This document shows positions 1-52,031 of a stretch of 64,000 nt of DNA, one piece after another; within the stretch, counting starts at the first letter, position 1; each line of letters begins with the position of its first letter. Both the position numbers and the translations under genes were made by a program. The DNA comes from Dehalococcoidia bacterium (GTDB lineage Bacteria; Chloroflexota; Dehalococcoidia; Lucifugimonadales; UBA3495), in NCBI GenBank assembly GCA_965204805.1, contig OZ242013.1:4589232-4653231 (forward strand), read 5' to 3'. The notes beneath the pieces were generated by a model. It was not told the origin of the DNA, did not search any database, and saw only the letters and a list, made by a program, of their open reading frames with translations.

Positions 1-1439
1 ACAAGGCTATGCCGACCAGCCTTCACTTCAAAAATTCTTTCGTTGGACTCCAATCCCCACGCGTCGCGCCCTTGCAGTTTTCCTGAGTATCCGGCCCACC
101 TGTCTTTTACGTCCACGTCTACATGGAAGTATTGTCCCGGTGCGGTGACAATCCGAAACAAGTCGATGTCACCCCGGTAGTCGATGGATCCTTGGGTTTG
201 CGATCCTACGGCAACAAGCGTGGCGTTGCCCGGGTGGTTGCCGTGGTCGTCCTCCTCATCCGGGATTTCTGCGAGGGTTATGGTCAGGCTGTAGGAGCCT
301 GTGCTCTCGTTGCCATTGTCCCCGGCCTTCACCAGAATGTGGTGGTCGCCGGATTCCCAGGCAGTCCAGAAAGAGTAAGATGCGAGGGGGTTGCCGTCGT
401 CGTTGGACGCTATCGCTGAAAGAGTTGGGTCAAGTACGGCGAAGGCGGCGCTGTCCAGCGATCCTCTATCCAGGTCAACCCGGTAGTTCTGTCCCGCCTC
501 GGCGCTAAAGCGGAACAAGTCGAGGTCGTTTGGGTGGTTGATGCGCCCTTGAATGCCCTCTCCCACGTCAATGACCGTAGCATATTCTATGAAGTCCCCA
601 TGGTCGTCATGAACAATCCGGTCGACCAGCTCGTCGTACTCCGCTTCTCCTGCCAGAGCGATACCCCCCGCCGGGAAGAGGTCGCACCCCTCGAGAAGTG
701 CCAAGACATCATCGGGCAATGCCGCCGTTGCCTCCTCCAAGGCCAGAGATGCCTCAACAAAACCCGGCCCGAAAATTTCGACGATCGTCCGGCTCATGGC
801 CTCCTCTATTAGCCCTTTTCGTTCTTCCGGTGTCTTGGTGGTGTCGTAGCCGATCTCGAAGGTGTCCTCAATTAACTGGGCAGCCGCGGTTACGTATTCT
901 TCACCAAAAGAGTCCTCGCTGGGACGGACGGCGGCCCGGTCACGGAGGGCTTCGAGAGTAGCGTAACTGGCATGGTGGAGCGCTTGTATCTCTAGTGGCA
1001 CGGCTAATTGTCCCAAAAGATCAAGGGCAACGTTTAGGCTCTTTTCGACCGACCCCCAGGTTATAAGTTCAATGTCGTCGTAATCACCCAAGATGTATTC
1101 ATCCAAGGAGACCCCAATCGTCTCGCACTCTCGCACGTAGTCGGTCACTCCCCTCTGCTCCGCTTCATCGGCGGTCCTCTGGGGAGAGGGCGTACTGGCC
1201 GGTGAAGCCACGGGCGTTGTTGGGGCAGGGTATGTGCTGGCCGGCGGGGACACGACCGTCGCCGTTGGCATACGTGTGGTTACTGGCATGGCCGCCACCG
1301 GGGTAGCCGGAGCCTCGCTTATAGCTGTGACGTCCGGCATAGTTTGAACAGTCGCCGGTGTGGGCGTTAACTCACCCCCGTTTGAGCAGCTCACCATCAA
1401 CGCCACCGTCACCGCTACGGCAATAAACAGCAGTCTCAT
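1..1439 (-). CDS. Lipoprotein with PPC (pre-peptidase C-terminal)-like repeats; partial, 3' end lies left of the window
   Basis: Absent from the ORF track because no stop is reached. Manual translation of the minus strand from ATG (1439-1437) stays open to base 1. N-terminus MRLLFIAVAVTVALMVSCSNGG is a signal peptide plus lipobox (LMVS|C). A Pro/Thr/Ala-rich linker follows, then two repeats of DDHG(D/N)..A..I..G....G.I....D.DLFR(F/I)....G..Y.VD, a PPC-like signature. Confidence 0.7.
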   Translation of the reverse strand, partial: MRLLFIAVAVTVALMVSCSNGGELTPTPATVQTMPDVTAISEAPATPVAAMPVTTRMPTATVVSPPASTYPAPTTPVASPASTPSPQRTADEAEQRGVTDYVRECETIGVSLDEYILGDYDDIELITWGSVEKSLNVALDLLGQLAVPLEIQALHHASYATLEALRDRAAVRPSEDSFGEEYVTAAAQLIEDTFEIGYDTTKTPEERKGLIEEAMSRTIVEIFGPGFVEASLALEEATAALPDDVLALLEGCDLFPAGGIALAGEAEYDELVDRIVHDDHGDFIEYATVIDVGEGIQGRINHPNDLDLFRFSAEAGQNYRVDLDRGSLDSAAFAVLDPTLSAIASNDDGNPLASYSFWTAWESGDHHILVKAGDNGNESTGSYSLTITLAEIPDEEDDHGNHPGNATLVAVGSQTQGSIDYRGDIDLFRIVTAPGQYFHVDVDVKDRWAGYSGKLQGRDAWGLESNERIFEVKAGRHSL

Positions 1440-1875: not shown

Positions 1876-4800
1876 TCAGTCGCCGCTGAGTTCGGCTACC
1901 TTCTCCTTCAGCCAGCGCAAACCGCCGTTGTTCACCTTCGTCTCGGACACCCAGTCCTCGTCGGTGGGGTCACCCAGGAAGAACCGGGGTATCACCGAGC
2001 CCGTCACCCCGGCCAGCCGGTCCACGTCGTCCTGCACGTCGCCCTTGACCTCGCTGTACTTGATTCCGGCGTCCTTCAGCAGCTTCACCCCTTGGTTGTA
2101 GCGGTCCACCGCGTCGTCTCCCGCGTCGGGGTCGTGGTAGATCACGAAGGAGACGGCGGGTTCACTGGCCGGAGTGTTGGCTGCCGCTACCGCGGCGGTG
2201 GCGGCGCTGGTCAGGGTCTCGGCGTTTCCAGCGTCGTCGGTGAAGGACACCGTTACCTTGATGGCCTTGCCCACATCGGCAGCGACTGGCGTGTAGCTGG
2301 AACCCGTGGCCCCCGATATATTCGCCCCGTCGGCCAGCCACTGGTAGCTGAAGCTGGCGTTGGCCAGCCCGTCGGCGTCGCTGATGCCCGAGGTGGCCAA
2401 CGTCAGTGTCTCTCCCACCTGCGCCGTGCCGCTGATGGTCGGGGCACCAGAGGCAGGGCTGTTGGCCAGCGGTTCCTGGGCCGGGGCCGCATTGGTGGTC
2501 CCGCTGCCCTCGGCCGAGTCGCCTTTGGCTTCTAATCCGGCGATGGTGTGGCGAGCCGTTACCTTGACCGTGTAGGCCGTCTCCGCCACCAGCCCCGTGA
2601 TCCGCTCGCTGGTGGCCGTGGCGTCGGAGCGGGTGACGGCGGTGTAGCTGCTGCTCCCCGTCTTCCACTCCACCACGTAGCCCACGGCTCCAGAGACCGC
2701 CGGCCAGGATACGTCCAAGCTGTCGCTGCTGTCGGCTACCGCCGAGACGGTGACGGCCCCCATGGCGGCCAGGGTGGTCCCGCTGGCCTCGCCCACCGCC
2801 AGTTCCGCGTCCGGGTCCGCCTCGGTGTCGATGGCCGTTACCTGGACGGTGTAGGCGGTATCTGCCGTCAGGCCGGTGACGGTGTGGCTGGTATTGGTCG
2901 CTCCCTCTCCGATGTTGTAGGAACCGGAACCGGTCTTCCACCGGACCAGGTACCGGTCGGCGTCGGTCACCGCCTTCCAGGACACTGCCAGCCTGGTGGT
3001 CTCACCGCTTACCGGATTGACCGTCAGCCCTTCCATCTCCGCCGGTTCCGCCGGCGCATAGGCCGTAGCGCCGCTCATTTCGGAGGTCTTCTCCCTGAGC
3101 CACCGCAGGCCGCCGTTGTTCTCTCCCGGCTGGGACACCCAGCCTTCTTCAGTGGGGTCTCCCAGGAAGAACCGGGGCAGGACCGAGTCGATCACCCCGG
3201 CCAGCCGGTCAACGTCATCTTGCACGGCGCCCCTGACCACCGTGTACTCGATCTCGGCGTCTATCAGCAGCTTGACCGCCTGGTTGTAGCGGTCCACCGC
3301 CGCATCTCCGGCGTTGGGGTCGTGGTAGACCACGAAGGAAACGGCGGGAGTCTCATCCGACTGCTGCTGGTCCGTGGTGCCGCTGGCCGTACCCTCGGCC
3401 AGCAGGCTGTTCTCCGCGTCCAGGGCGGCGACGTTGACGGTGTAGGTGGTGTTCGGGGACAGGCCCGTGATGGTGTAGCTGTTGGTGGTGGCCTGCTGGG
3501 CGTCGCCGTAGTCCCCGGCGCCGGTCTTCCAGCGCACGTCGTACCGCGCCGCGCCCTGCACCTCGTCCCAGTTCACGGCCAGCTGGCTGGGCTGGCCCGA
3601 AACGGAGGTAACGGTCAGGCCGGCCAGCGCCGCCGTTCCCACGCCTTCCGGCGGGCTCTGGCCTTGCCCGGTTTCGTTCGGCGCGTTGGTTGTGCCGCTG
3701 GCCTCGGCGGAGTCGCCGTCTTCGTGGTTGCCTAGCCAGTTGCTCAGCACGGTGACCTTGACCGTGTACGCCGTTTCGGCTTCGAGGCCGGTGACCTGGT
3801 AGGCGGTGGTGCCGCTGGAAACGGTCGCCGAGTTCGTGTCGGTGTAGTCCCCGGCGCCGGTCTTCCACTCCACCCGGTAGCCCCTGACCGTATAGCCGTC
3901 GGAGCGAAGCGTCGGTGCCGTCCACCGCACGTTCAGCTTGGTGGTCTCGCGGTCCGCCGCCGAAACGGACAGCCCGGTGATCTCCCCGAAAGTCGCGCCG
4001 TAGCTGGCGTGGGAGAGGCCGTCGGGCGCAGACGCGGAACCGGCGGCGGTATATGCGATGACCCTGGCCTCGTACTCCGTATTGGGCTGCAGGCCGGTCA
4101 CCCGCAGGACAGGCGACTTCAGCGGCTCGCCCGTGTAGTAGGGGAGGGTGTAGGTCCGGTAGGTCGTCATGTTGTCGGCGGTCACCGTGCGGCGGCTACT
4201 TGTCCCGCAGGTGTCGAAGGTGACCGGCTTCAACTCGATCACGTAGCCGGCCGCGGTGCTCACCGTCTCCCACTCGACGTCCGCGGCCCGGGCGTCGCCC
4301 GCGACGGGATCCAGGTACACCACGCCGGGCCAGCCGTGTAGCGTCACCGTCGCCTCCTGGGCGTGGCCGTCGCTCGCGCCGCCCTGTTGGGTCAGCCTGA
4401 CCGTGTGCACGCCCAGAGCCAGACCACTGACCTCATGGGAGGAAACCTCAGACCCAGCCGTGTGGCTGCGCTCCAAGGTGCTGTACGACTGCGCCCCGGT
4501 CTTCCATTGCACCAGGTAGCCAGTCACTCCCGGCTCCGTCGAGGGCGTCCACAACACCCTCAGCACGTCATCGAACAGCGAATGCTGCCTCGGTGCCAAC
4601 TGGGCGTTGGCGACACCGTTGACGCTGAACAACACGTTGGAGGATGGCTCAGCAGGCCACGAGCCCCCATGCCGTCTGTGGTTAACCGAGTAGCGTTGGA
4701 TGCGGCGGCCGTCGGCGATGGACCAGCCAGCCGCGCCGGTCTCGGCGTGCGAAAGAGTAAGTCTGACGCCGTTTCGGTGGGTGTAGGCACGGCAGACGAC

Positions 4801-7101
4801 GTCGATGATGACGTAGTAGGTGGTGTCCGGTTCCAGGTGGAGGCCGGGGTGGGTGAAGGTGTTGCCGCCGCTGCTCAGCGTGTCCGGGTTGGTCAATATG
4901 GCCAGCGCTTTCCCCGGCCTACCGCCGAGTGTGCTCTCGGCGGCGATGAAGACCTCCAGGCCGTCCGAGCGGGTGCCGGCAGGGATTCCCCGGAGAATGA
5001 GATCGACGCTGGTCAGCGTGTAGCCGGTGGCGTTGCCGCCGGTCGTGAAGCCCTGGGCGGCGTCGGCCCCGCCCAACGTCTCGTAGTTGCGCCGGGCATT
5101 GCCCGTGTTGCTGACCAGCACCCCAGGCGACGCCGACGGCGCGTTGGTCGTGCCGCTGCCCTCGGCGGAGTCGCCGTCGGCGGCCTGGCCGTCGATGCTG
5201 ACCCGGGCTGTTACCCTCACCGTGTAGACGGTGCTGGCGCTCAGGCCGGAGATCCGGGCCGAGGTGACGTTTGCCGCCGTGGTGTGCCTGCGCTCAGTAT
5301 CCGAAAACTCCTCGCCGCCGGTCTTCCACTGCACCAGGTAGCCGGTCTCCCCGTTGATGTCCGCCCAGGAGGGGCTCAGCTCGGTCGAGCTGCCGGCCAC
5401 CGCCGAGACGCTGATGGCGCCCATCTCGTCCGGCGTGGTGGCGACTGCCTGGTCCGACGCCAGGTCCGCGTCGGGGTCGGCGTCGGTGTCGACGGCGGTG
5501 ACCTGGACGGTGTAGGTCGTGTCCGCAGTCAGCCCGGTGATGGTGTGGCTGTTGGTGGTCACCGTCGTGCCGGAGGAGTAGGCGCTGGTGGCGGTCTTGT
5601 GCTGCACCCGGTACTGCTCCGCCCCCCCTTGCGCCGTCCACGACACCGCCAGCTCCGTGGTCTTGCCCGCCACCGGCTTGACGGTCAGCCCGGCCAGGTC
5701 CGCCAACGTGCCGTTGATGCGCATCACCAGGCTGGAGGCGCCCGAGGAGTATGTGCCCGTGGAGTTGTACGTCCGGTAGTGGCCGTCGTTGCCGATGGTC
5801 CAGCCCACCGTGCTGTCCTCGTCATTCGACGAGGTGGTGCGAACGTAGGTCCTGTAGGCAGTGCCGGTGGCGCTGACGTCGATGACCACGAAGTAGCTGG
5901 TGGAGGAGGCCAGCGCCAGGCCCGTGTGGGTGAATCTGTTGAGTCCGGTGGCCAGGGCCGGCGGCGCGGTGAGCGTGGCCAGGCTGTCGCCCGGCTGGCC
6001 GTTGCTGTCAGCGTGGACGGCGACGGTGAACGTCGGTGCGGTGCCGGTGGCTTCTCTCACCATGTCCAGGTCGACGCTGGTCAGGATGTAGCCGCCCCCG
6101 CCCGTCGTGAACCCCTGGGCATTGTCGTTGGAGAGTTGTATGTCCTGGGCGGTCTCGTCGGTGTTGGAGACCAGGGCCACCGAAGGGGTGGTGACGGTGC
6201 CGTTGATGCGCATCACCAGGCTCGCTGGGTCCGAGGAGTATGAGTCCAGGGAGCCGAAGGAGCGGTAGTGGCCATCGTCGCCGATGGTCCAGCCCGCCGT
6301 GCCGTCCTCCTCATCGGACCTGATGAAATTGACGAAGGTCGCAAAGGCGGTACCCCGGGCGCTGACGTCGATGACCACGAAGTAGCTGGTGGCGGGGGCC
6401 AGCCCCACGCCCGTGTGGGTGAACGTGTTGATCCCTTCAGCGATGGTCTCCGGCGCGGTGAGCGTGGCCAGTTTGCTGCCCGGCTGGCCGTTGCTGTCGG
6501 CGTGGATGGCGACGGTGAACGTCGGCGCGGTGCCCGGGTCCTTACCCATCGGCAACTCGACGCTGGTCACGATGTAGCCGCCGGCGCCCGTCGTGAACCC
6601 CTGGGCGCGGTCCTGGTTGTGCTCGAAGCTCTGGGGACTGCCCTTGCCGATGTTGGAGACCAGCACCTGTTCCTGCACAGGGGGTGCTTCGAGCACCACG
6701 ATGGCGATGTCGAACTTGGCCGTGTCGCCGTCGGCGTCGGTCACGGTGTACTTGTACCCGGTCAGGGCCTGCGCCCTCGTGGGGACGCCGGTCAGCTTGC
6801 GCGTCGACGCGTTGAAGGTCACCCCGGCGGGCAGCGTCGCGCCTTGCTCCGGCGTCAGGCTGTAGGTCAGCGTCCCGTCGCCGGTGGCTGCGGGGAGGGT
6901 GACGTCGACCGCAACGCCGACCGTGTACTCCTGGACCAGGTCGAGCACGGTGAACGTGCCGTCATGCACCCACTTCGGCCTGGTGTCCGCCTGGGCGGAG
7001 GCGTGGTCGGGCGAGCCGACAACCAGCAGGGCAACCAGGATGCCCAGGGCAAAGAGGACTCCCCGGTGCAGGATGAAGCGCGGCGGGCGCGACATGCTCA
7101 T
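1876..7101 (-). CDS. Giant secreted surface protein A (1741 aa): signal-anchor, cadherin-like Ig domain, 3x LVSN module, many FN3 repeats, internal plus C-terminal Grx-like domain
   Basis: Uninterrupted 1741-codon ORF with RBS caGGAGGtgagacctcATG. N-terminus MSMSRPPRFILHRGVLFALGILVALLVVGSPDHASAQA. One LPAATGDGTLTYSL..LPAGVTF..TGVPT Ig-like domain. Three ~150-aa modules (LVSN..AQGFTTG..GY.LTSV.L..FTVA.HADSNGQPG..LATLT.P....G.N.FTH.GL.L...T.YFVVIDV..GW.I). Numerous FN3-like units (L.VSW....GA..Y.V.WKTG...Y......T..T..ITGL...T.YTV.V.A). One PTISGTAQVGETLT..YQWLADG..I.GAT Ig-like repeat. The ~92-aa domain VSFV(I/V)YHDP.AGD.AVDRYNQ..KLL.DA.I.Y..V.G.VQDDVDRLAGV..SV.PRFFLGDPT.E.WVS......NNGGLRWL.EK occurs twice: internally at ~3070-3348 and at the C-terminus at 1876-2154. 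Confidence 0.9.
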   Translation of the reverse strand: MSMSRPPRFILHRGVLFALGILVALLVVGSPDHASAQADTRPKWVHDGTFTVLDLVQEYTVGVAVDVTLPAATGDGTLTYSLTPEQGATLPAGVTFNASTRKLTGVPTRAQALTGYKYTVTDADGDTAKFDIAIVVLEAPPVQEQVLVSNIGKGSPQSFEHNQDRAQGFTTGAGGYIVTSVELPMGKDPGTAPTFTVAIHADSNGQPGSKLATLTAPETIAEGINTFTHTGVGLAPATSYFVVIDVSARGTAFATFVNFIRSDEEDGTAGWTIGDDGHYRSFGSLDSYSSDPASLVMRINGTVTTPSVALVSNTDETAQDIQLSNDNAQGFTTGGGGYILTSVDLDMVREATGTAPTFTVAVHADSNGQPGDSLATLTAPPALATGLNRFTHTGLALASSTSYFVVIDVSATGTAYRTYVRTTSSNDEDSTVGWTIGNDGHYRTYNSTGTYSSGASSLVMRINGTLADLAGLTVKPVAGKTTELAVSWTAQGGAEQYRVQHKTATSAYSSGTTVTTNSHTITGLTADTTYTVQVTAVDTDADPDADLASDQAVATTPDEMGAISVSAVAGSSTELSPSWADINGETGYLVQWKTGGEEFSDTERRHTTAANVTSARISGLSASTVYTVRVTARVSIDGQAADGDSAEGSGTTNAPSASPGVLVSNTGNARRNYETLGGADAAQGFTTGGNATGYTLTSVDLILRGIPAGTRSDGLEVFIAAESTLGGRPGKALAILTNPDTLSSGGNTFTHPGLHLEPDTTYYVIIDVVCRAYTHRNGVRLTLSHAETGAAGWSIADGRRIQRYSVNHRRHGGSWPAEPSSNVLFSVNGVANAQLAPRQHSLFDDVLRVLWTPSTEPGVTGYLVQWKTGAQSYSTLERSHTAGSEVSSHEVSGLALGVHTVRLTQQGGASDGHAQEATVTLHGWPGVVYLDPVAGDARAADVEWETVSTAAGYVIELKPVTFDTCGTSSRRTVTADNMTTYRTYTLPYYTGEPLKSPVLRVTGLQPNTEYEARVIAYTAAGSASAPDGLSHASYGATFGEITGLSVSAADRETTKLNVRWTAPTLRSDGYTVRGYRVEWKTGAGDYTDTNSATVSSGTTAYQVTGLEAETAYTVKVTVLSNWLGNHEDGDSAEASGTTNAPNETGQGQSPPEGVGTAALAGLTVTSVSGQPSQLAVNWDEVQGAARYDVRWKTGAGDYGDAQQATTNSYTITGLSPNTTYTVNVAALDAENSLLAEGTASGTTDQQQSDETPAVSFVVYHDPNAGDAAVDRYNQAVKLLIDAEIEYTVVRGAVQDDVDRLAGVIDSVLPRFFLGDPTEEGWVSQPGENNGGLRWLREKTSEMSGATAYAPAEPAEMEGLTVNPVSGETTRLAVSWKAVTDADRYLVRWKTGSGSYNIGEGATNTSHTVTGLTADTAYTVQVTAIDTEADPDAELAVGEASGTTLAAMGAVTVSAVADSSDSLDVSWPAVSGAVGYVVEWKTGSSSYTAVTRSDATATSERITGLVAETAYTVKVTARHTIAGLEAKGDSAEGSGTTNAAPAQEPLANSPASGAPTISGTAQVGETLTLATSGISDADGLANASFSYQWLADGANISGATGSSYTPVAADVGKAIKVTVSFTDDAGNAETLTSAATAAVAAANTPASEPAVSFVIYHDPDAGDDAVDRYNQGVKLLKDAGIKYSEVKGDVQDDVDRLAGVTGSVIPRFFLGDPTDEDWVSETKVNNGGLRWLKEKVAELSGD

Positions 7102-7498
7102 GAGGTCTCACCTCCTGTCAGGGCACTGCTGGCGACAACTGGACGAGGGCGCGGGTAAACGGCAACCGCGCCACCGTCTTTGGACGGAGCGCGCTGAAAA
7201 GAGAACGCCGCGCGGTAAACTGACGGCGCGGCGGGATTATCCGGTGAGGCGGGTTTCCACCGGGCGGGGAACGCCGGCGAATGCTGGTTGATGGGCCGGT
7301 TCCCACCGGAACCGGAGGGTCCGGAGTGAGAGTGAAGTGCTCTGTCATTACACACCCTGTTCTAGCCGGAACGAGGGGGGGCTGACAGGGGTATGCTGAA
7401 ATGCAACCGGCGCGCCCCGAGGCGGTGGCGATTACGGCAAACGGCCCTGTTTCCGGCCTGAAGACAGCCAAGTTAATACAGCCAACTCTCCCGGTGGG
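7102..7498 (-). promoter_or_regulatory. Conserved ~400-nt 5' leader of gene A (copy 1 of 3): riboswitch/attenuator-like, class unrecognised
   Basis: Alignable with 12762-13195 and 27452-27909. The conserved core (~7251-7375) reads, in RNA sense, GGGUG.GUAAUG..A.AGCAC....C.U.ACUC-hairpin-GGUUCCGG.GGGA...CCA.CA.UCGCCGG.C.U.CCCGCCCGG.GGA. It is followed by an internal intrinsic terminator (7205-7243) and then ~100 nt to the RBS. Confidence 0.55.
7205..7243 (-). terminator. Intrinsic terminator inside the leader of gene A (attenuator candidate)
   Basis: RNA sense: CGCCGCGC-cgucaguuuac-GCGCGGCG followed by UUCUCUUUUC. It lies ~105 nt upstream of the ATG at 7101. The same hairpin, with compensatory changes, occurs in the other two leader copies. 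Confidence 0.6.
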
Positions 7499-7610
7499 CA
7501 GAATCTGAGAATATATTAGACACTCCCCATGAAATTGATATAGCAATATCGTGTAATCACTCTTTCATTTTGCGTGTCAATCTTTGTGTCAACCGGCTCT
7601 AGGGTATAAT
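7499..7610. promoter_or_regulatory. Conserved AT-rich divergent promoter block (copy 1 of 3)
   Basis: Near-identical ~60-bp block cagaatctgagaatatattagacactccccatgaaattgatatagcaatatcgtgtaatcac. On the minus strand this reads ..TAATATATT.., a likely -10 region for the leader. It is followed by the direct repeat GTGTCAA-N5-GTGTCAA and a perfect plus-strand TATAAT at 7605-7610. All elements are conserved at 13196-13309 and 27910-28023. Confidence 0.5.
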
Positions 7611-7733
7611 GGGTTCCGGTTTGGGCTCCCGCAGGTAGGATGACGCGCTTGGGCGGTCGCCTCAGTCCCGACCGGTGGGCCGATGTACCGCCATATCCGG
7701 CATCGGGTGACGGCGGCCGGCAACCAAAGCTGA

Positions 7734-7792: not shown

Positions 7793-10700
7793 TCAGCCGC
7801 CGCTCAGTTCGGCCACCTTCTCCTTCAGCCAGCGGAGGCCCCCGTTGTTCTCGCGCGGCTTGGATGTCCACCCTTCCTCAGTGGGGTCCCCCAGGAAGAA
7901 CCGGGGCAGCACCGAGCCGGTCACCCCGGCCAGCCCGTCCACGTCCTCCTGCACATCGCCGATGACCTCGCTGTAGGAAATACCGGCGTCCTTCAGCAGC
8001 TTGACCGCCTGGTTGTATCGGTCCACCGCGGCGTCCCCGGCGTCTGGGTCGTAGTAGATGACGAAGGAGACATCCGGAGCCGCAGCCGATTGCTGCTCGT
8101 CCGTACCTTCACCTTCATTCGGGTCGGTGGACTGGCCGGTTTGCGGCTCCGTGGCGCCGTTGGCCGTGGCCTCCGCCAGCAGTGTGTTGTCCCCGTCCAG
8201 GGCGGCGACGTTGACGGTGTAGCTGGTGTTCGCCGACAGGCCCGTGATGGTGTAGCTGTTCGTGGTGGCCTGCTGGGCGTCGCCGTAGTCCCCGGCGCCG
8301 GTCTTCCAGCGCACGTCGTACCGCGCCGCGCCCTGCACCGCCCCCCAGGACACGGCCAGCTGGGTGGGCTGGCCCGAGACGGAGGCAACGGTCAGGCCGG
8401 TCAGCGTCGCCGTTCCCACGGGGTCCTGGTCCTGCGAGGGATCGGGTTGGACGGCCTCGCCGGTCTGCGGCGGCGCCGCCGTGGTTCCGACGACTGCGCC
8501 CGCCGCAAGGATCTCATCCGTTGCCGTGTTATAGGCGAAGACGTGGATGGTGTAGGCCGTGTCCGCCGTCAGGCCCGTGATGGTGTGGGGGCTCCTTGTC
8601 AGGTTCGGCGGCCTGCTCGGCGGCTCCACCCGTCCCTCATCCCCGGGGCCGGAAATGCTGTAGTTGCCGGTGGCGGTCTTCCAGCGGACGTTGTACCGGG
8701 TGGTGATCCCCGCCGGGGGAGTCCAGGTCCAGGACACCACCAACCGTGTGTGAGCGTTCGTGGCGGGCGCTGAAACGCTCAGCCCGGTCAGCGTGCCGCC
8801 GGTGGTGGTGGCGTCGTGGCTGTCATCGGCCTTCAAGTAGCCGTCCGCGCCGGTTGCCGCGACGTAGACGACGTAGTTCGTGCCGGCCTTCAGGCCCGTT
8901 ATGGTGTAGCTGGTCCCGGTGGTCTCCACGGCCTCGCTCCACGGGTTGCCGACGCCGCTTTCCTTCCAGCTGACGCTGTACTTGGTTGCGCCCTCCACCC
9001 CGTTCCAGGACGCCGCCAGCTGGGTGTTCTCCCCGGTGACGGGCTCCACGGCCAGGGTCAGCGTCGTCGGGAGGGGTTTCGTGGGTGTAGATTCGGTCGC
9101 CGTGCCGGGTGTGCCGCTGCCCGAAGCCTGGCCGATGTCATTGTTCTGGTGGCGGGCCGTGACCCGCACGGTGTAGATGGTGTCCTCCTCCAGCCCGGTG
9201 ATCCGCTCGTATGCCGCCTTGGGGTCGGTCCTGGTGACTGCGGTGAAGGCGCCGGTGTTCGGGCCGGTGCCGTCGGGGGTCAACCACGTCCGGTACTCCA
9301 CGACGTAGGAGATGTCGTCCCTGGGGATGGCGGTCCACCACACGTCCAGCTTGTCGGCTTCGCCCTGGATGGGCTGGACGGTGACGGGGCCGAAGGGACC
9401 GCGGGTCTTGCCCGTCGCCCGGCCCGAGCCCATCTCCAGGCCGTCCGTGGCGCCCTCTATCGCCACCACCTGGACGGTGTACAACGTATCGGCCTCCAGT
9501 CCAGTTACTGTAGCGGTGGCCTTGAAGCTTGGTATGCCTATCGTGAGATTGGCGCGGCTGATAGTCTGGGACACCGTGTACGGGATGTGGTACAGGCCTA
9601 TGCTCCCCTTCTTGTACTCAACCCGGTAGTGGTCGGCGCGGGAATCATCCTCCCAGAACACCCGGAGTTGGTTCTGGTTCGTGTGGTCGGTCCTGGCCTC
9701 GACTCCCCCTATGGCCAGCTCCGAAGTGGTGGCGATAACCGTGTCCTCACCAGCGTCCCCGCCGAGAGTGTTACCTCTAATGTACCAGGCTACTGCGACC
9801 CTTACCGCGTAGTTCGCGTTGGGGGTGAGACCGGTTATCCGAAAGGGTGAGGCCGCACCGGCCTTGGCTGTGACCCAGGATGCCGTGCCATCCTTCCGGT
9901 ACCTCACGGTGTAGTGGTAATAGCCTGTGCTCGGCTCAAGGGCCGGCCAGGACACGATAAGGCCGTCGCCATGGTTCACCACAGGACTGGCCTGGACGCC
10001 GTCGAACACCGCGCGGGTCGTGCCCACGGCTTGGCCGGAGCCAAGACTCCCGCCGCTCCCCAGCGCCGTCACCTGGACGGTGTACTCGGTGTCAGCCTCC
10101 AGGCCCATCAACCGGAAGAAATGGCCGACCTGTAGCGGAGGCGTGGAGTCCCTGAACAGGACGAACGGCTCCGACGGGTCCGTGCCCGCCTTGTACTCGA
10201 CCCGGTAGGCGGTGGTGCCGGGCACGGCCTGCCAGTTCAACCGGAGTTCGGTTACGTGGAGGGGATGGTTTTCCGCCGTGACTCCCCCGACCCTCTGGAC
10301 CGTCAACTCAGAGGTGGTCCCGCGCGCCTTGGCGGCGGGGTTATCGGTGCAGCCGGAGCCCGACTTCTGGAAGCCCAGCCGGACCTCGTACTCGGTGCTG
10401 GCAACCAGGCCGCTGATCTGGTACGTCGTGGTCTGGCTGGTCAGGGACTGAGTGGTCCCGTAGCTGCCGATGCCCGGCGGCGTCCGCCAGTCCAGGCAGT
10501 AGCCCGTTGCGCCGGAGAACGGGTCCCAGGACACGTCCAGGGCCCCGGCGTCGCCGGCCACGGGGGTCACGGCGAGCCCGGTGGGACGGCTCAGGGTGGT
10601 GACCTGGGCCGTCGCCTTGTTCACCCCTGCGTTGGGGTCCGCCTCGCGGCGGTGGGCCGAGACCTCGACGGTGTATGTCGTGGCGGGCCGCAGAATGCTG

Positions 10701-12761
10701 GCGGCAGGTTCATAGATCTTCATGGCCGAGCCATGCGACAGCCTCGTCTCGTACTCGCCGCCGCTCCCGTCGGTCAACCTGACCCGGTAGAAGTCGGCGC
10801 TCGGCACCGGATTCCACAGCAACCCGATCGTCATCCTGCCGTCGTCGACGAAGCCGGGGGTCGCCACTAGCCCGGTGGGCGCGGGCAGGGACTCCGAATC
10901 CGCCGGTGGCGGCGGCTCCGGCGGCGTGCCATTCGTCGTGCCCTGGGCCTCGCCGGTGATGCTGGGACGCCAGCTGCTTCGCACAGGGGTGACCTTCACC
11001 GTGTAGGTCGTGCCGGGGGCCAGACCTCCGATCCGGTGGCTGGTCTTCGTCGTGGTCGTCCAACCGGACTCCTGTCCCTCCGCCCGCCACTCTATCCGGT
11101 AGTGACGAGTCCAGCGCACGGAGGGCCAGGACACGTCCAGCTCGGTCGTGCTGCCGTCCACCGGGGCGACACTCACGGTCAGAACCCCCCGGGGGCCGGG
11201 TCCGGCTCCGGCGGAGGAGGTCCCGGTTGCCCGACCTTGGGCGGGTCGGCCAGACGCACCTTCGCGGGCGGCACGGGATGGCTCGTATAGTTCCCGAAGC
11301 GCAGGGTGAAGCTGCCCGTCTTGAGCGGGTAGGCGCTGGTGATCTCCAGGATGTAGTTGCCGGGGTCCAGGGTCCGCACCAGCCGCGAGTTCAGGCTGAA
11401 CGGGTTGCGCTGGTCGTCGTTCTCGTCGATCCTGACGGCGCTGCCCGGGCTGTTGCCCTCGGCCAGGTAGAGCTGGGCGTCGAAGTCGTCCGACTCCAAG
11501 GTGAACACCACGTCCTGGCGATGCTGGCCGGTGACGCTGAAGCTGGCGTGCCGGGCGTAGGCCGAGACGTAGCGAGGCGGGAATATGGCCGGGCACGCGC
11601 TGGTGAGCTCGTCGTCGTACTTGCCGAACTCGATGGGCGCCGGCGCACAGGGCGGGGTGTCCGGTTGCGGCAAGGGGATCGGCTTGACGAGGCCCTTCAC
11701 CTCTATGTGCCTGGTGGTGGAGAGATGCGTAAATGTGCCCGTGGAGTCCCAGGCCCGCCGAGAGATATTGTTGTTGATGCTCCAACCGGGCGCGCCGGAC
11801 TCGCCAGTGTCGGCAGTGCCCAGGAGCCGGTCATCGCTGCGGTTGGAGGCGTCGATGAACACCATGTAACTGGTGGGGCGGCCAGGTCCAGGCCCGAGTG
11901 GGTGAACGTGTTCCTGCCGCTAACGATGGCCTGGGGCGCGGTCAGATCGCCCACCTTGGTGCCCAGCTGGTTGCCGTTGGCGGTGTAGATGGCGACGGCG
12001 ACCGTCGACCTGACGGTTCCGGCGTGGGCTATGTTCAGGTCGACGCTGGTCAGGGTATAGCCGGTCGGGTTGCTCCCCGTGGTGAACCTCTGGGCATAGT
12101 CAAATCTCAGGGTGCCCCAGAAATTCTGCACGCGGTCGAAGTTGGTGACCAGCACCCCTATACCCTTGGCGACGCCGTTGATGCCGATCTTCAGGGCAGT
12201 TGTGGCCGTCGACCACGCGCCCGTGGAGTTCCAGGCCCGGCCATGGGCCACGTTGTTGATGCTCCAACCCGACGCGCCGGACTCGGCGTCGGAGAGGGTA
12301 ACGTCGATACCGCTCCCCGTACCTGTGGAAGTGACGTCGAAGACCACGAAGTAGCTGGTGGAGGGGGCCAGGTCCAGGCCCGTGTGGGTGAACGTGTTTA
12401 CGCCGGTGGCGAGGGTCCCCGGCGCGGTCAGCGTGGCCAGTCTGTTGCCGGGCTGGCCGTTGCTGCTGGCGTGGACGGCCACGGAGAACGTTGCCCTGTT
12501 GCTCTGCGTGAAGGCCATGTCCAGATCGACGCTGGTCAGGGTATAGCCCAAGATGCTGCTGCCCGTCGTGAACTCCTGGGCATACTTCTCAGTCCTGAAG
12601 TCCGCATTGGCCGCGGTCGTCTCGCCGATGTTGGAGACCAGGGCCGCCGACTGGGCGGAGGCCCGGTCCGGCGAGCCCACGGCCAGCAGAACGATCAGGA
12701 GACCCAGGGCGATGAGGACGCCCCGGTGCAGGATGTAGCGCGACGGAAGCAGTCTGGTCAT
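7793..12761 (-). pseudogene. Giant secreted surface protein B (~1656 codons if repaired), split by two 1-nt frameshifts in homopolymer runs
   Basis: Three ORF-track pieces join into one protein: 11703-12761, 11179-11865 and the biologically meaningful part of 7793-11785. Junction 1: ..NTFTHSGLDLAAP | TSYMVFIDASN.. at the G4 run 11875-11878. Junction 2: ..PPPPEPDPAPGG | VLTVSVAPVDGSTTELDVSWP.. at the C6G5 run 11185-11195. The span is 4969 nt, and adding 2 nt gives 1657 codons. Content: family signal-anchor MTRLLPSRYILHRGVLIALGLLIVLLAVGSPDRASAQ, 2 LVSN modules, a PPC-like domain, many FN3 repeats, and the C-terminal Grx-like domain (7793-8071). Confidence 0.8.
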
Positions 12762-13195
12762 TGCATTGCCTCTCTTCTATTGGGTATGGACGCGCCGGAC
12801 GGCGGCGCGGACGGGGTTGGCCTTGGCTGGGGTCGTGGGAGAGTCTTCGTCCTCAAGGGCGCGGCGGCGGAGCGTCCCGCAGCCGGTGTCTTCAAAGAAG
12901 CGGGCTGAGAAAAAGCGCCGTTGCGGTCAGCCAACGGCGCAGTCAGGGTGCCTCGTAAAGCGGGACTCCACCGGGCGGGGAACGCCCGGCGAGTGGTGGC
13001 GGGTAGGTCAGGTCCCGCCGGAACCGGAGGGGCCAGAGTGAAGGGGCAGTGCTGTCTCATTACTCACCCCGTTCTAGCTGCGACTTGCGACTAAGGTCAG
13101 GGGTGGCTGACATGGGTGTGCTGCGACAGTTACGGCAAACGGCCTTATTTCCGGCCTGAAGGCAGCCAAGCCTATATCTCCCCTCTCCCGGCGGG
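12762..13195 (-). promoter_or_regulatory. Conserved 5' leader of gene B (copy 2 of 3): riboswitch/attenuator-like
   Basis: Same architecture as 7102-7498. Core at ~12955-13078, internal terminator at 12907-12940, conserved pre-RBS hairpin GCGCCG-ccguc-CGGCGC, and RBS agaaGAGAGGcaatgcaATG. Confidence 0.55.
12907..12940 (-). terminator. Intrinsic terminator inside the leader of gene B
   Basis: RNA sense: GCGCCGUUG-gcugaccg-CAACGGCGC followed by UUUUUCUC. This is the strongest U-tract of the three copies. Confidence 0.65.
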
Positions 13196-13309
13196 CAGAA
13201 TCTGAAAATATATTAGTCAATCCCCATGAAATTGATATAGCAATAACGTGTAATTACATCTCAAATATGAGTGTCATTCTTTGTGTCAATTAGCCGGTGA
13301 GGGTATAAT
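13196..13309. promoter_or_regulatory. Conserved AT-rich divergent promoter block (copy 2 of 3)
   Basis: cagaatctgaaaatatattagtcaatccccatgaaattgatatagcaataacgtgtaattac, then GTGTCAT-N5-GTGTCAA, then TATAAT at 13304-13309. Confidence 0.5.
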
Positions 13310-13503
13310 AGGTTCCGGTTGGGCGCTCCCGGAGGCAGGATGACGCCCGCGGGCGGTCGCCTCCGTGTCGGCTGGTTAGTCAGCGATGATTGCCCTCACA
13401 CCCTGAGCCTGCCTGAAAGCCTCTTCTATTGGCCCCAGTTCCGGCCGGGGGCCGACGTCCCGCTATGTCCCGCATCGGGTGGCGGCGGGAGGCAAACAAA
13501 GCC

Positions 13504-13533
13504 GAGGACGGCCCCTGCACGTGGGCCGTCCTC
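13504..13533 (-). terminator. Hairpin terminator after giant gene D
   Basis: gaggacggccc-ctgcacgt-gggccgtcctc, 11-bp perfect stem, ~28 nt downstream of the TGA at 13561-13563. Confidence 0.5.
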
Positions 13534-13560
13534 ATCTCTTGGCGCTATTTCCGGCAGGGG

Positions 13561-25300: not shown

Positions 25301-27451
25301 CGATGCCGTTGACCTGCATCTTGATCACCGAATTGACTAACGAAACCCACGCACCCGTGGAGTTCCAGTCCCGGTCAAAGCCCACGTTGTTGATGCTCGC
25401 ACCCTTTGCGCCGGTCTCTCCGCCGGACAAGGTAGTCCGAACAGCGGTGGTGGTGCTCGAAGTGGTGACGTCGACGACCACGAAATAGCTGGTGGCGGGG
25501 GCCAGGTCCAGGCCCGCGTGGGTAAACGTGTTCGTCCCGGTCGCGATGGTCCCCGGCGCCGTCAGCGTGGCCAGCCTGCTGCCCGGCCGGCCGTTGTTGT
25601 CGGCGTGGACGGCGACGGTGAACACCGGGCTGGTGCCCGCTCGGACCACCATGTCGATATCGACGCTGGTCAGCGTGTAGCCGGTCCAGTTGACGCCCGT
25701 GGTGAACTCCTGGGCGTAGTCCTTATCGAATCTCCCAGGCAAGCCGGACGTCTCGGTGAGGTTGGAGACCAGGGACTGGCGCTTGACCACGCCGTTGACG
25801 CGCATCGACATGGTATCGGTGCTAACCCGAGCGCCCGTGGAGTTCCAGAGCCGCCAACTGCTCCCGTTGGCAATGCTCCATCCCTGGGCGCCAGTCTCTC
25901 CGTTGGATTGGGTGAGTTTGATTTCGCCATCACCACTGGAGGCAGTGGCGTCAACGACCACGAAGTAGCCGGTGGCGGGCTCCAGGGCCAGGCCCGTGTG
26001 GGTGAACCGGTTGGTGCCGGTCGTGAGGGTCCCCGGCGCGGTCAGATCGGCCATCTTGCTGCCCGGCTGGCCGTTGCTGCTGGCGTGGACGGCGACGGTG
26101 AACGGCACCTTGTCGCCCGTCGTGAACGACAGGTTCAGATCGACGCTGGTCAGGGTGTAGCCGGCGCTGTTGCTGCCCGTCGTGAACTCCTGGGCACGGT
26201 CAGCATTGAGAACACCACCGAAGACCGTCTCGGTGAGGTTGGAGACCAGGGACTGGCCCACGACCGCGGTCGCATTCGTGGTGACGGTGGTTTCGGACTG
26301 GGCCAACAGGGTCGGTTCAGCCCCTATGGCGATGATTTCGGCCCGGATTCGGACGTCATACTCGGTGTTGGCCGTCAGGCCGGTGATCTGCGCGCTCGTG
26401 TCGGGCGCGGAAACGACTACACGGTCGCCACCGTACGAGCCGCCACCGGTCTTCCACTGGACAGTGTAGGTGGTAGAGTTAGTCACCGCGTCCCAATCCA
26501 CGTCGAGCTTGTCTTGTCGGTGCTGCCGGAGACCGGGGTGACGGTAAAACCGGGCACCGCCGGCGGATTGGTGGTGGCGGTGGTTTCGGACTGGGCTGCG
26601 ATGGTAGAAGGAGGGTTTATGGCCCTGATTTGGACGCCATATTCGGTGTTGGCCGTCAGGCCGGTGATTTGATAGCTCGTTGCTGGGGCAGCGAAAGTTG
26701 TCGAGCCAGTCGGGGAGTCGTACGTCTGGTCGCTGGTCTTCCACCGGATATTGTATCTGCTGAAAGTGACGCCGGTCGGCGCGTTCCACGACACGTCGAG
26801 CTTGTCAGAGCTGCCGGAGACCGGGCTCGCGGTCAGGCCGGGCACCGCTGCATATTTGATGGCGCCGCTTACGCGTATCTGAAGGGCACCGGTGTCATCA
26901 GTCCAGGTGGTGCCGGTGCTGGTCTTCTTCTTGTGGCCGTTGGTGATGATCCAGCCCGCCGTGCTGTCCTCGTCGTTGGAGTCGGTGCCCCGGATCGAGC
27001 CCGTGCCGGTCGTGCCCCCGTCGACGACGACCACGTAACTGGTCGAGGCGGACAGGTCCAGGCCCGTGTGGGTGAACGTGTTGTTGCCGGTGGCGATGGT
27101 TTGAGGGGCCGTCAGCGTGGCCAGCCGGTTCCCCGGCTCGCCGCTGCTGCTGGCATGGACGGCGACGCTGAACACCGACTTGGTTCCGGGCGGAGAAGGA
27201 AAGGCCAGTTGAATGTCCACGCTGGTCAGGGTGTAGCCGAGGGTGTTGCTGCCCGTCGTGAACTCCTGCGCATAGTCGCTGCGAGGACTGACCGTCCAGG
27301 TGTTCCCTTTGCCGACGTTGGAGACCAGGGCCGCCGACTGGGCGGAGGCCCGGTCGGGCGAGCCCATGGCCAGCAGGACGATCAACAGACCCAGGACGGT
27401 CAGAACCAGCCCGGGTAGTAGGATGTAGCGCGACGGCAGCAGTCTGGTCAT
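22336..27451 (-). pseudogene. Giant secreted surface protein F (~1703 codons if repaired), split by a 5-bp tandem duplication and a 1-nt homopolymer frameshift
   Basis: ORF pieces 26483-27451, 24285-26789 and 22336-24252 form one protein. Junction 1: ..AVPGFTVTPVSGSTDK | LDVDWDAVTNSTTYTVQWK.. at CTTGTCTTGT 26508-26517 (coding strand ACAAG ACAAG). Junction 2: ..IPEHGKF(P) | PVRFTLANSEAAFSPDEPESDGPAELTGLTLAPVPGEPTQLAVSWDP.. at the G5 run 24371-24375. The span is 5116 nt; minus 5 plus 1 gives 1704 codons. Content: family signal-anchor, 4 LVSN modules, FN3 repeats, two PTISGT.QVGETLTADTSGISDA.GL.N.SF.YQWLADGSDISGAT Ig-like repeats, and the C-terminal Grx-like domain (22336-22614). Confidence 0.8.
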
Positions 27452-27592
27452 GGCGTTGCCTCTCTTCTATGGGTGTTGACGCGCCGGACGGCGGCGCAGA
27501 CGGGTTTGGCGGTGGAGCAAAAGGGGAAGTCTCCGCCCGCGAGGGCGCGGGGTCGGAACGTCCCGCAGCCGGTGTCTTCAAAGGGAGCGGTT

Positions 27593-27626
27593 CGAGAAAG
27601 GACGCCGCTGCGGTGAGCCAGCGGCG
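27593..27626 (-). terminator. Intrinsic terminator inside the leader of gene F
   Basis: RNA sense: CGCCGCUG-gcucacc-GCAGCGGCG followed by UCCUUUCUCG. The stem changes are compensatory relative to copy 2 (U-A becomes C-G). Confidence 0.55.
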
Positions 27627-27778
27627 CGCTGAGGTTGCCTGGTAAGGCGAACTTCCGCCGGGCGGGTAATGCCCGGCGAATGGTGGTTGATTGGTCAGTT
27701 CCCACCGGAACCAGTGGGACTGGAGTAAAGGGGCGGTGCTGTGGCATTACCCACCCCGGTTCAGCCAGTAGGAAGGTC

Positions 27779-27792
27779 GGGGGGGGGGGGGG
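27779..27792. repeat. Homopolymeric G14 tract (C14 in the leader RNA)
   Basis: Counted directly: gg at 27779-27780 plus 12 g at 27781-27792. The homologous positions hold G7 (7375-7381) in copy 1 and GGGGTGG in copy 2. Confidence 0.95.
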
Positions 27793-27909
27793 CTGACAGG
27801 CGTATGTTGCCACCAGCCCGGCGCATAAGGAACGCCGGGCCGGTGGCCGCAAGGTTCTCTATATCCGGCCTGAAGACATGCAAATTGGTATCTCCCATCT
27901 CCCGGCGGG

Positions 27910-28023
27910 CAGAATCTGGAAACATATTAGTCACTCCCCATGAAATTGATATAGCAATAAGGTGTAATTCAGTCAAAAACTTGTGTGTCATTCTTTGTGT
28001 CAACTTCGCGGTCAGGGTATAAT
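27910..28023. promoter_or_regulatory. Conserved AT-rich divergent promoter block (copy 3 of 3), shared by gene F and the hybrid kinase gene
   Basis: cagaatctggaaacatattagtcactccccatgaaattgatatagcaataaggtgtaattcag. Then GTGTCAT (27985-27991)-N5-GTGTCAA (27997-28003). TATAAT at 28018-28023 lies ~30 nt upstream of the RBS GGAGG (28044-28048) and the ATG at 28053. Confidence 0.55.
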
Positions 28024-34466: not shown

Positions 34467-34548
34467 CCGCTCCTACCGGATGGATGGCTCACAACCCCAC
34501 TCGACCGGCAAGGTCTTCGATACGACTGCGGAGGGTGTTGCCCCGCTC

Positions 34549-38668: not shown

Positions 38669-39380
38669 CTCTTGGGGAGATTATGCCCAGCAGCGGCTTG
38701 GTTCCACGAAGCGGGGCATAGAACGGAGCGGGATGCCGACGCTGATATGTGTCTGGTGTTGTGCTTGGCCATCATCCCACCTTGTCTTCACAAGCCCGGT
38801 GTGAAAGTCAATCGTTAGCTCACGTTTGGCCAAGGCATCCTTCCCACAACTATCAAGAAAGGCCATCTGCCCGTGAAAAAGTTCGCTCCTGTCGCCCGTG
38901 CGGTAGTAACTCCTCCACGGTGAGCTTAATTTCAGGCTGCTCACCAATACCGCTGGCCGTGCCCGGTTCCGTCGACCCGCTTTTTGGCAATTTCTTCTCC
39001 CTGGCGTAGTCCACGTCGATGGGGTTGACCTATCTTGGCACGGGAGAGCGCTGGATGCCGATTACAGACCACGTACTGGATTCCCTGATCGAACGGGGTC
39101 AAGAGACGGGGAAGGCCATAAATGACTGTAAGGCGCCGGGAGGCGTCTAGTTAGTGTTGTGTCACAGTTACAATTGGAAGCACCTTTCAGGGTGTAAGAG
39201 GCGGCGCCAAGGCGTCCCAGGAGGGAGGACTGACTGGACGCGGCGGCCCAATGTCATGGCGAAGCCAGGTGTTCTGATCCGGCGCATCCTGCGCAAGCGC
39301 GCTTATCCGCCCGATAAGCAAGAGAAGGCAACACAGACAGTGTTGGAACAGGCGGGGGTGCTGTCGGAAGGGTGGAGCTG

Positions 39381-50867: not shown

Positions 50868-51833
50868 GTGGTTTTTCCACCGCATTTTTGGCGACTCATC
50901 ATGGGCACACTTCCCTCGTTCATAGAGGCTCTCTGGGCCCTGAAATATGTGGTGTCCGGCAAGGTGAAGCCGCTGCGGGAGGATAAGGGAACTGCGATGG
51001 AAGAGGCCAGAGCTGTACGAGACGGGCAGAGAGCCTGGGCCACGGAGAACGGAGTCCCCTTCGATTCTCGCGGCTACGTTGATGACGTTGAAATGAATCT
51101 CAGGCGACCCCTGTCCGCAGCGGCTCGGGAGGCTTTTGAGAAAGGGGCGGGGTCAGAGCTTGCCGGGCACATGAGGGCGCTGCACTCGTCTTCTGCCCTG
51201 GTGGTCAACTTCTTCGACTACTGGAGCTGTAGGGACAAGGATCCACTCCTATTCGCCTTCGGCATCAGCGGCAAAGTGGCAGACCGTCTGGAATTCGAGG
51301 CCCGTTTCCCCACAGGGCTGGGAGGGACTCCGCCACATCTTGACGTTGTGATATGGCTCCTGTCAGGCGAGGCCATCGCAGTGGAGAGCAAATTCACCGA
51401 ACACCTGGGGCGGTCCACTAAGGGAAAATCCCGCTTTGAACCCTCGTACTTCCCCGAACAAAGGGGACTCTGGGAGGAGAAAGGCCTGCCCGCAAGCCAG
51501 TTATTCGCCGAAGAACTGAACGCCGGACTCCATCGCTTTGAATCCCTGGACCCGTGGCAACTCCTAAAACACGCCCTGAGCCTGGCCAATGTCCTCGGTC
51601 AGGCTTTTCGCTTAGTTTACCTTTACTACGACTCACCCGGGGGAAGGGCCCAGCAGCACCGGCGGGAAGTCCGGAGATTCGGCGACGCCGAGCGAGACGA
51701 TTTCATATTTGAACCGCGGGCGTACCAGACGGTTTACCAGCACCTCACGACTTTTGAGGACACGGACCTTGGCTACCTCGAATACATCGACTACTTCGGG
51801 ACCAGGTACTTCCCCGACGTCCTCAGACGATGA
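50868..51833 (+). CDS. PD-(D/E)xK nuclease-fold protein (putative)
   Basis: ALHSSSALVVNFF followed by PPHLDVVIWLLSGEAIAVESKFTEHL gives a D...(E)xK arrangement typical of restriction-endonuclease-like folds. The start is uncertain (possibly MGTLPSF at ~50901). Confidence 0.55.
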   Translation: MVFPPHFWRLIMGTLPSFIEALWALKYVVSGKVKPLREDKGTAMEEARAVRDGQRAWATENGVPFDSRGYVDDVEMNLRRPLSAAAREAFEKGAGSELAGHMRALHSSSALVVNFFDYWSCRDKDPLLFAFGISGKVADRLEFEARFPTGLGGTPPHLDVVIWLLSGEAIAVESKFTEHLGRSTKGKSRFEPSYFPEQRGLWEEKGLPASQLFAEELNAGLHRFESLDPWQLLKHALSLANVLGQAFRLVYLYYDSPGGRAQQHRREVRRFGDAERDDFIFEPRAYQTVYQHLTTFEDTDLGYLEYIDYFGTRYFPDVLRR

Positions 51834-52031
51834 TGTTTCCGTGCCCGCCCTTTGGGGATCCTCCAGGGGTCGCGCGGGGTGTTCGGATGGAGCCGGAAAG
51901 CGCCGTAAATGGATGCAAATGCACCCCTTACCGGTTGTCACCGGCTCTTGATGATTTCCATTCCGAGCGGCTACGACTTTGACAGGCCCCAGTAAACTAC
52001 TGTCTGGCAGTCTCGGAAAAGGAGACCCAGT

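Follow-up and report, generated by a model that had tools for sequence, protein, structure and literature searches.

Leaders that combine internal terminators with upstream open reading frames (ORFs) are a well-known kind of regulatory region. In the pyrBI leader of Escherichia coli, a leader ORF with its own ribosome-binding site (RBS) crosses a Rho-independent terminator upstream of the structural gene, and a ribosome that follows closely blocks the hairpin. Riboswitches for cyclic di-GMP (c-di-GMP; the GEMM families of Rfam) occur upstream of adhesin genes, and Pho-box promoters contain direct heptamer repeats that are bound by regulators of the OmpR/PhoB family. In the LoaP-dependent dfn leader, an operon of unusual length and cost is headed by a small conserved RNA element with an intrinsic terminator behind it, and the hallmarks of the LoaP system are a hairpin with a UNCG tetraloop in the leader and a nearby gene for a NusG paralogue (PMC12691694). 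Here we analyse a leader that is present in three copies (A, B and F) in a 64,000-nt stretch of DNA, below called the window, from a Dehalococcoidia bacterium of the phylum Chloroflexota (assembly GCA_965204805.1, contig OZ242013.1, positions 4,589,232 to 4,653,231). The sequence makes it fairly likely that this is a cis-acting leader in which an internal hairpin attenuates the transcription of very long, costly genes, and that it belongs to a promoter cassette, which is probably controlled by a neighbouring hybrid regulator.

The left half of the window is occupied, on the minus strand, by genes for giant secreted proteins composed of fn3 and He_PIG repeats (Pfam); genes A, B and F and their leaders all lie on this strand (coordinates of the features are collected in Table 1). 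Exactly three copies of the leader are detected in the window by nhmmer and a covariance model, and the cassette precedes three transcription units of 5-14 kb each, ~25 kb in total. The divergent gene next to leader F encodes a hybrid histidine kinase with the domain order GAF-PAS-HisKA-HATPase-REC-Trans_reg_C in one polypeptide (Pfam). The original prediction, made from the letters of the window alone, had the three leaders aligning with one another, which they do: the upstream regions can be aligned over ~600 nt with a mean column identity of 74%, and the core, hairpins, coordinates, strands and compensatory changes that had been claimed are all present as listed, on the minus strand. The three transcription units share a long 5' leader with a terminator-like hairpin that is specific to one orientation. 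Colinearity between copies B and F extends from -605 to +514, with ~75% identity (66% at third codon positions), and from the sequences the three copies are old whole-gene paralogues, so that likeness among them alone says little. The gene A protein, at ~33% identity to B and F, stands apart from its promoter and leader core, which are 72-85% identical to theirs; that the leader and promoter of A are so much better kept than its coding sequence argues for selection on the cassette or for a transfer of the cassette as a unit.

Orthologous loci were collected through the kinase protein, twelve from ENA/NCBI assemblies and ten from JGI metagenomes. The kinase is highly conserved among metagenome-assembled genomes of Chloroflexota (the top 120 matches are all 60-87% identical), and in most loci with kinases of 72-80% identity it is transcribed away from a giant gene of the fn3, cadherin or LapA-like type (L019, L052, L053, L055, L057 and L058); the divergent neighbour is smaller or matches no Pfam family in L017 (kinase 87% identical), L051, L054 and L056. 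Two kinase paralogues are present in each of L017 and L058. The leader has clear homologues in just two loci, L051 and L052 (nhmmer E-values of 1e-46 and 1e-40), and weak ones in L019, L053, L054, L017 and L056. No leader homologue was found in L055, L057 or L058, the first two of which have short leaders without a terminator, or in the JGI loci, whose kinases are only 52-61% identical and none of which has a recognisable leader. A scan of the GTDB representative genomes, which do not include the source species, with the core pattern gave 16 matches, all of them chance matches confined to the 21-nt pattern; in viral contigs one pattern gave no match and the other four chance matches inside coding regions. 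When the antisense ORF called as a gene over the L051 leader was compared with a protein database, a single near-identical relative was found, which implies that the element is rare or is not called as a gene. On this evidence, the element appears to be restricted to a narrow clade of uncultured Chloroflexota and to be rare in public data. Between the window and L051/L052, the first ~200 nt of the leader are essentially unalignable (28-47% identity), the presumed aptamer-like core is 50-65% identical, and the terminator together with the ~60 nt that follow it is 80-95% identical, against 70-73% at the third codon positions of the adjacent kinase gene. As far as these sequences tell, this pattern is the opposite of that of a typical riboswitch.

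A GC-rich stem-loop followed by a U-rich tract, the sequence signature of an intrinsic terminator on the transcribed strand, is found in each of the three copies; it ends at a distance from the start codon of 96 nt in A, 145 nt in B and 142 nt in F. The stems of B (GCGCCGUUG/CAACGGCGC) and F (GCGCCGCUG/CAGCGGCG) are one compensatory pair apart, and that of A is formed in a shifted register (CGCCGCGC/GCGCGGCG); the predicted energies are -16.3 (A), -18.0 (B) and -18.8 kcal/mol (F). Taken with the L051 copy, the range is -14.6 to -18.8 kcal/mol, all four with U-rich tails, and a U-A pair is replaced by C-G in one compensatory change. The predicted stems, tracts and compensatory differences are thereby borne out; copy B is the only one to pass a strict terminator scan (12940-12915, tail UUUUUCUC). 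In the best stem of A the loop is longer than the scan allows, and in L051 a stable stem is followed by a U-tract interrupted by C.

The feature that persists in ten leader copies from eight loci is a G-rich run 3-8 nt before an ATG, which usually reads ATGAC.CTGCAC; the ATG is present in nine of the ten copies, L052 being the one without it. The G-run lies at the right distance from the AUG, so the core resembles a Shine-Dalgarno site. The motif GGGUG.GUAAUG..A.AGCAC, which had been taken for a structural stem-loop, is real; what had gone unnoticed is that its G-run and ATG open a reading frame across the terminator. The predicted upstream ORF is 26-103 codons long, continues through the terminator of A, B, F and L051, and in L054 stops inside the loop of that locus's own terminator, so that a Shine-Dalgarno-like sequence, a start codon and an ORF overlapping the terminator are found together. 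Its TGA overlaps the main ATG (as ATGA) in B, F, L052, L053, L019 and L056, and it ends 9-18 nt before the main ATG in L051, A and L017. Between B and F, indels of -1 and +1 jointly restore its frame. In L052, the only copy without the ATG, the terminator is decayed as well (-10.8 kcal/mol), and the minimal leader of L056 consists only of a C-run, the G-run, the ATG, a 31-codon ORF and the ATGA overlap.

The mechanism that we propose reads transcription start, termination, translation of the upstream ORF and binding of the regulator from the sequence features and their conservation, which are themselves observed. Transcription would start downstream of the three T(T/G)ACAC repeats, to which the hybrid kinase/OmpR-type regulator encoded alongside probably binds, and the transcript would pass through the ~430-nt leader. 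About 290 nt in, the GC hairpin with its U-rich tail would act as a leaky intrinsic terminator that limits entry into the 5-14 kb units. Ribosomes would load at the Shine-Dalgarno-like G-run and AUG and translate the upstream ORF, whose frame continues through the terminator as far as the main start codon or to no more than 18 nt from it. With a ribosome trailing the polymerase, the hairpin would be kept from forming, as in the pyrBI attenuator of E. coli, and that ribosome could then move on to the adhesin start codon by translational coupling at the ATGA overlap. Pairing of the G-run with upstream C-rich tracts or with the downstream CCYYACC could set how much the upstream ORF is used. This ribosome-based route is favoured because it uses the one feature conserved across the whole family, and it would account for the ORF and the terminator travelling together. 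We hold it tentatively, as a possible but doubtful form of read-through, and the combination of attenuator cassette and ribosome-based route is, as a whole, somewhat more likely to fail in one of its parts than to hold in all of them. In an RNAalifold consensus, the U-rich tail of the terminator pairs with the purine-rich RBS of the main gene, a pairing that agrees with coupling but that base composition by itself would lead one to expect. The arrangement resembles pyrBI in that a predicted leader ORF with an RBS-like site crosses a terminator-like hairpin ahead of the gene; it differs in having no evident UTP-sensitive pause logic and a longer predicted ORF that usually overlaps the main start and whose peptide is not conserved, and the organism and the target genes are unrelated. 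One of the C-rich tracts, in leader F, is a run of 14 C in the RNA (G14 on the plus strand), with counterparts of C7 in A, C9 in L051 and C11 in L019 and L056; this tract may be prone to slippage and pair with the G-run, or its length may be an error of assembly.

Several observations weigh against this model. The peptide of the upstream ORF is not conserved (differences by codon position 0.53, 0.49 and 0.45) and the ORF has no codon bias, its GC1/2/3 of ~0.65/0.65/0.68 comparing with ~0.6/0.5/0.85 in real genes of the locality; a conserved leader protein was rejected on the same two grounds, the missing codon periodicity and the flat GC profile. Open frames are common in this GC-rich leader (two of three are open in copy F), and the sequences are related. 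The statistics that favour a maintained frame are therefore no more than suggestive: seven of ten copies have a spacing of 2 mod 3 between the upstream and the main ATG, within a range of 92-314 nt (binomial P = 0.02; 0.04 if B and F are counted once), and, with L054 excluded, 3 stop codons fall in the frame of the upstream ORF, whereas the remaining frames contain 14 and 19. The U-tracts of A and F are broken by C (UUCUCUUUUC and UCCUUUCUC) and fail the strict scan, and L052 (where the hairpin is degenerate), L053 and L019 have no convincing terminator, which means that attenuation is not universal in the family. A four-helix fold of the core, described below, has some pair support, and something other than a ribosome could act on the core; moreover, the attenuator model leaves the strongly conserved block behind the terminator unexplained.

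Part of this evidence would suit a locus without conditional control, in which duplication and constraint on the promoter and regulator sites account for the likeness of the copies, and the hairpin either works constitutively, as a leaky dampener or insulator, or causes no termination. The colinearity of B and F well beyond the leader, the single copy that passes the strict scan, the decay of the terminator in L052, L053 and L019, and the short leaders without a terminator in L055 and L057 are all in line with such a reading. We nevertheless regard it as quite unlikely: conservation in copy A is far higher in the leader than in the coding sequence, the pairing of the terminator stem has been kept by compensatory change in a segment that is at least 80% identical in L051, and unrelated terminators occur at the same place in L054 and L058. 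In the last two loci the leader sequence is unrelated and an intrinsic terminator lies ~250-430 nt past the kinase-divergent promoter (L054, ~7616-7643; L058, ~9610-9647; both on the minus strand), with a perfect 12-bp stem in L058.

Attenuation of this kind would operate within a larger promoter cassette. The three direct repeats T(T/G)ACAC, spaced by 12 and 23 bp, look like a Pho-box-type operator and are the putative site for the OmpR/PhoB-type output domain of the kinase; boxes at a fixed distance from the kinase ATG recur in seven other loci (L017, L019, L051, L052, L054, L055 and L057). Read on the plus strand as GTGTCAT N5 GTGTCAA, the repeats resemble Pho boxes in being direct, about one helical turn apart, placed at the -35 position before a good -10, and adjacent to a Trans_reg_C gene: box 1 overlaps the -35 element of a plus-strand promoter, TTGTGT-17-TATAAT. 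They differ from Pho boxes in their spacing of 12 rather than 11 bp, in the third repeat 23 bp off, and in the candidate regulator, a fusion of kinase, receiver and DNA-binding domains. For the minus strand, promoter elements between the kinase and adhesin genes are TGCTATATC and TAATAT; the latter is conserved at 13210-13215, and the 5' end of leader B (~13205) was placed from it. A promoter scan found no canonical sigma-70 promoter on either strand, so that the transcription start is only inferred. Copies A and B also carry a relic of the divergent kinase promoter, RBS and ATG (at 7600-7642 in A and within 13283-13342 in B, both on the plus strand), the real gene start being present only at copy F. 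Together with the regulator sites and the promoter, these relics identify the triplicated unit as promoter, regulator sites, leader and gene 5' end. Any activity of a relic promoter would send antisense transcription into the 3' end of the adhesin gene that lies upstream. In L019, a second repeat-box promoter (462-548, minus strand) lies downstream of the fn3 gene and ahead of a kinase-like (APH/EcKL) gene, which suggests that the regulon reaches beyond adhesins.

The structure of the core bears on the proposal of a conserved aptamer coupled to the terminator. As a class, the leader was said not to be recognised, and the Rfam comparison agrees: there are no matches in the whole window at gathering thresholds and only chance-level ones at E<=10 for B, F and L051, the best being DUF3800-VI with 19.1 bits against a threshold of 35. 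The folding energy of leader B (z = -1.19) shows no more stability than that of shuffled sequences, the minimum-free-energy structures of the core differ among the nine homologues folded, and in folds up to the terminator loop no conserved antiterminator was found, the partner of the terminator 5' arm differing in each homologue. On the other hand, the helices of the original prediction are paired in 72% of the cells of a nine-sequence MAFFT alignment against 35-49% in slid controls, and RNAalifold with nine sequences adds a closing helix, P1, between the G-run GGUGGG and CCYYACC ~20 nt before the terminator. In a four-helix model, consisting of P1 and three hairpins, 81% of the cells are paired in seven sequences (24-51% in slid controls) and nine pairs (13 cells) have changed on both sides (1-4 pairs in controls); the model was derived from the same seven sequences on which it was scored, three of them paralogues, and its pairing support appears real but modest. 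Hairpin a differs by two compensatory pairs between copy A (CCGGA-CCC-UCCGG) and copy F (CCAGU-CCC-ACUGG) and forms four of five pairs in copy B. Hairpin c, extended by two outer pairs to a 9-pair helix (columns 87-95 with 101-109 of alignment A6), is paired in 84% of cells and shows one compensatory change, from G-C to U-A, in L051.

Some of these hairpins keep their pairing through compensatory changes, but a and c are lost in the distant L053, L019 and L056, and a is absent from L051 as well. A ligand riboswitch, in which a junction closed by P1 with hairpins a, b and c binds a metabolite and decides whether the terminator forms, would draw on the pairing figures of the four-helix model, on the conserved stretches that it leaves unpaired (UAAUGAC.CUGCAC, CUGACC and AUUCGCC), and on the terminator lying within ~20 nt of the P1 3' strand. 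It is made distinctly improbable by the origin of the model in its own test sequences, the missing hairpins, the discordant folds without a common antiterminator, a core conserved below synonymous sites, and a motif that matches no Rfam family and is rare in public data; the idea of a conserved aptamer coupled to the terminator is not supported, on largely the same points. The likeness to c-di-GMP riboswitches is confined to a cis-regulatory leader and terminator before large surface or adhesin genes, with neither an Rfam match nor a conserved aptamer architecture. Two further structures were rejected: a long-range helix CCCRCCGG/CCGGYGGG, predicted by RNAalifold from the three paralogues, is not kept in L051, L052 or L017, and in a K-turn or C/D-box reading of UGAUGA...CUGA, made by eye, the stems on either side are out of register.

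Between species, conservation is highest in the block behind the terminator (UUUGAAGACACCGGCUGCGGGACGYUCCGCC...), which occurs in B, in F (27545-27582, minus strand), in L051 (~9455-9515) and in L052 (~9490-9545), is 80-95% identical between species, above synonymous sites, and is missing from copy A. No codon periodicity, compensatory changes or promoter-like hexamers were found in it, and it was rejected as a coding sequence for want of the first and as a conserved hairpin for want of the second. Conservation in primary sequence rather than in helices, above all in this block, together with the lack of a conserved competing RNA structure, would agree with factor-dependent antitermination, in which a protein (a NusG paralogue or an RNA-binding antiterminator) at the core or the block lets the polymerase pass, and a similar bypass might operate at pause or termination sites within the very long genes. 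The layout is like that of the dfn leader of Bacillus velezensis (PMC12691694). The LoaP-controlled dfn and mln polyketide leaders are similar in that a conserved element is followed by a terminator before exceptionally long transcription units; they differ in their UNCG hairpin, their phylum and their sequence, to which the present leaders show no similarity. Here the loops are UUCCC, AUUACCC or GAGCACAUG, none of them a UNCG tetraloop, and no NusG or KOW protein was found among the 28 ORFs scanned, a scan that was not exhaustive. Nor was an ops element GGCGGTAGNNTG common to the three leaders found on the minus strand with up to two mismatches; the one two-mismatch site is in copy F, and RfaH/ops-dependent antitermination was rejected on this ground. 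The block, moreover, comes after the terminator, too late to act on it. The fallback of the original prediction, a leader dependent on a protein or an antiterminator, is a possibility that agrees with the missing competing structure; on balance, we consider factor-dependent antitermination unlikely.

The same block would be at home in a promoter or operator, being the most conserved part of the leader and devoid of a structural or coding signature, and this is what one would expect if a separate small RNA of ~290 nt ended at the terminator and the adhesin were transcribed from its own start in the block. Such an arrangement is highly improbable, given that the block contains no sigma-70-like hexamers, that copy A lacks it and keeps everything upstream, that the 5' 200 nt of the putative RNA are not conserved between species, and that the regulator boxes occur only upstream of the first promoter.

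Table 1. Features of the three leader cassettes and the genes they adjoin (positions in the window)
Feature	Coordinates	Strand	Basis or remark
Gene A	1876-7101	-	giant fn3/He_PIG protein
Gene B	7793-12761	-	giant fn3/He_PIG protein
F operon	27451 down to 13561	-	F is the first gene
Hybrid histidine kinase/response regulator (P0001), divergent	28053-30422	+	OmpR-type DNA-binding domain; Pfam; 100% match to P0001
Leader A	7102-7505	-	core 7338-7359; terminator 7196-7234
Leader B	12762-13205	-	three-copy alignment and sequence
Leader F	27452-27920	-	core 27736-27757; terminator 27591-27629; C14 tract 27779-27792
Conserved core, copy B, GGGGUGAGUAAUGAGACAGCAC: G-run then AUG (AUG 13060-13058)	13049-13070	-	most widely conserved motif, ten leader copies
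Hairpin a, copy B, CUGGC-CCC-UCCGG	13024-13038	-	compensatory changes in copy F and L052; absent from L051, L053 and L019
Hairpin c, copy B, CCGGGCG-UUCCC-CGCCCGG	12971-12989	-	7 bp
CUUUACG, proposed 3' strand of helix P1, pairing with the G-run	12954-12960	-	RNAalifold, 9 sequences; 88% of cells paired in 7-sequence alignment
Predicted intrinsic terminator, copy B, GCGCCGUUG-GCUGACCG-CAACGGCGC then UUUUUCUCA	12906-12940	-	terminator scan; -18.0 kcal/mol
Post-terminator block, UUUGAAGACACCGGCUGCGGGACGCUCCGCCGCCGCGCC	12858-12896	-	best conserved between species; alignment with L051/L052
Ribosome-binding region AGAAGAGAGGCAA and gene B start codon	12759-12778	-	sequence and alignment
Predicted upstream ORF, 100 codons	12758-13060	-	sequence; crosses terminator; UGA overlaps main AUG (AUGA)
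Three direct repeats T(T/G)ACAC, copy B, putative regulator site	13248-13289		read on the minus strand; invariant in A, B and F
The same repeats, copy A	7548-7590		alignment
The same repeats, copy F	27955-27997		alignment
Relic of divergent kinase promoter, copy B: TATAAT 13304-13309; GGAGG-N5-ATG, ATG 13340-13342	13304-13342	+	real gene start only at copy F

The F operon ends in a canonical terminator (13503-13534, minus strand) that lies immediately upstream of cassette B and has a 12-bp stem followed by GCUUUGUUUG. Genes B and F are each broken into two overlapping ORFs in different frames ~1 kb past the start (11703-11785 and 26483-26789), which could reflect a frameshift, a pseudogene or an assembly indel. 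Elsewhere in the window, restriction and defence genes (Eco57I-like methylase, GmrSD, REase-ARP and DUF6361) are found at 31551-36285 and 50868-57212, a pentapeptide-repeat protein at 39372-40571 and a HEAT-repeat protein at 61193-63004.

There is, finally, a slim chance that the cassette is an undescribed device of host-associated Chloroflexota, either a new class of structured RNA built on the four-helix junction or a new coupling of upstream ORF, terminator and start-codon overlap, which would gate a regulon of giant adhesins with a dedicated hybrid regulator and for which the post-terminator block would be a further recognition site. Should the attenuator not be confirmed, what is left is a promoter region that has been duplicated. 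Genes for giant fn3, He_PIG and cadherin-like proteins are a hallmark of uncultured, probably host-associated Chloroflexota; we know of nothing reported on their control, nor of any attenuation mechanism described in the phylum. The locus defines a putative small regulon for giant adhesin-like genes, along with a strongly conserved block, and offers a concrete, testable regulatory unit in which a conserved hybrid sensor-regulator and the DNA sites to which it probably binds are combined with a leader that contains a predicted terminator and upstream ORF. If the proposal is true, attenuation would ration the expression of very expensive genes in a phylum in which it has not been described.

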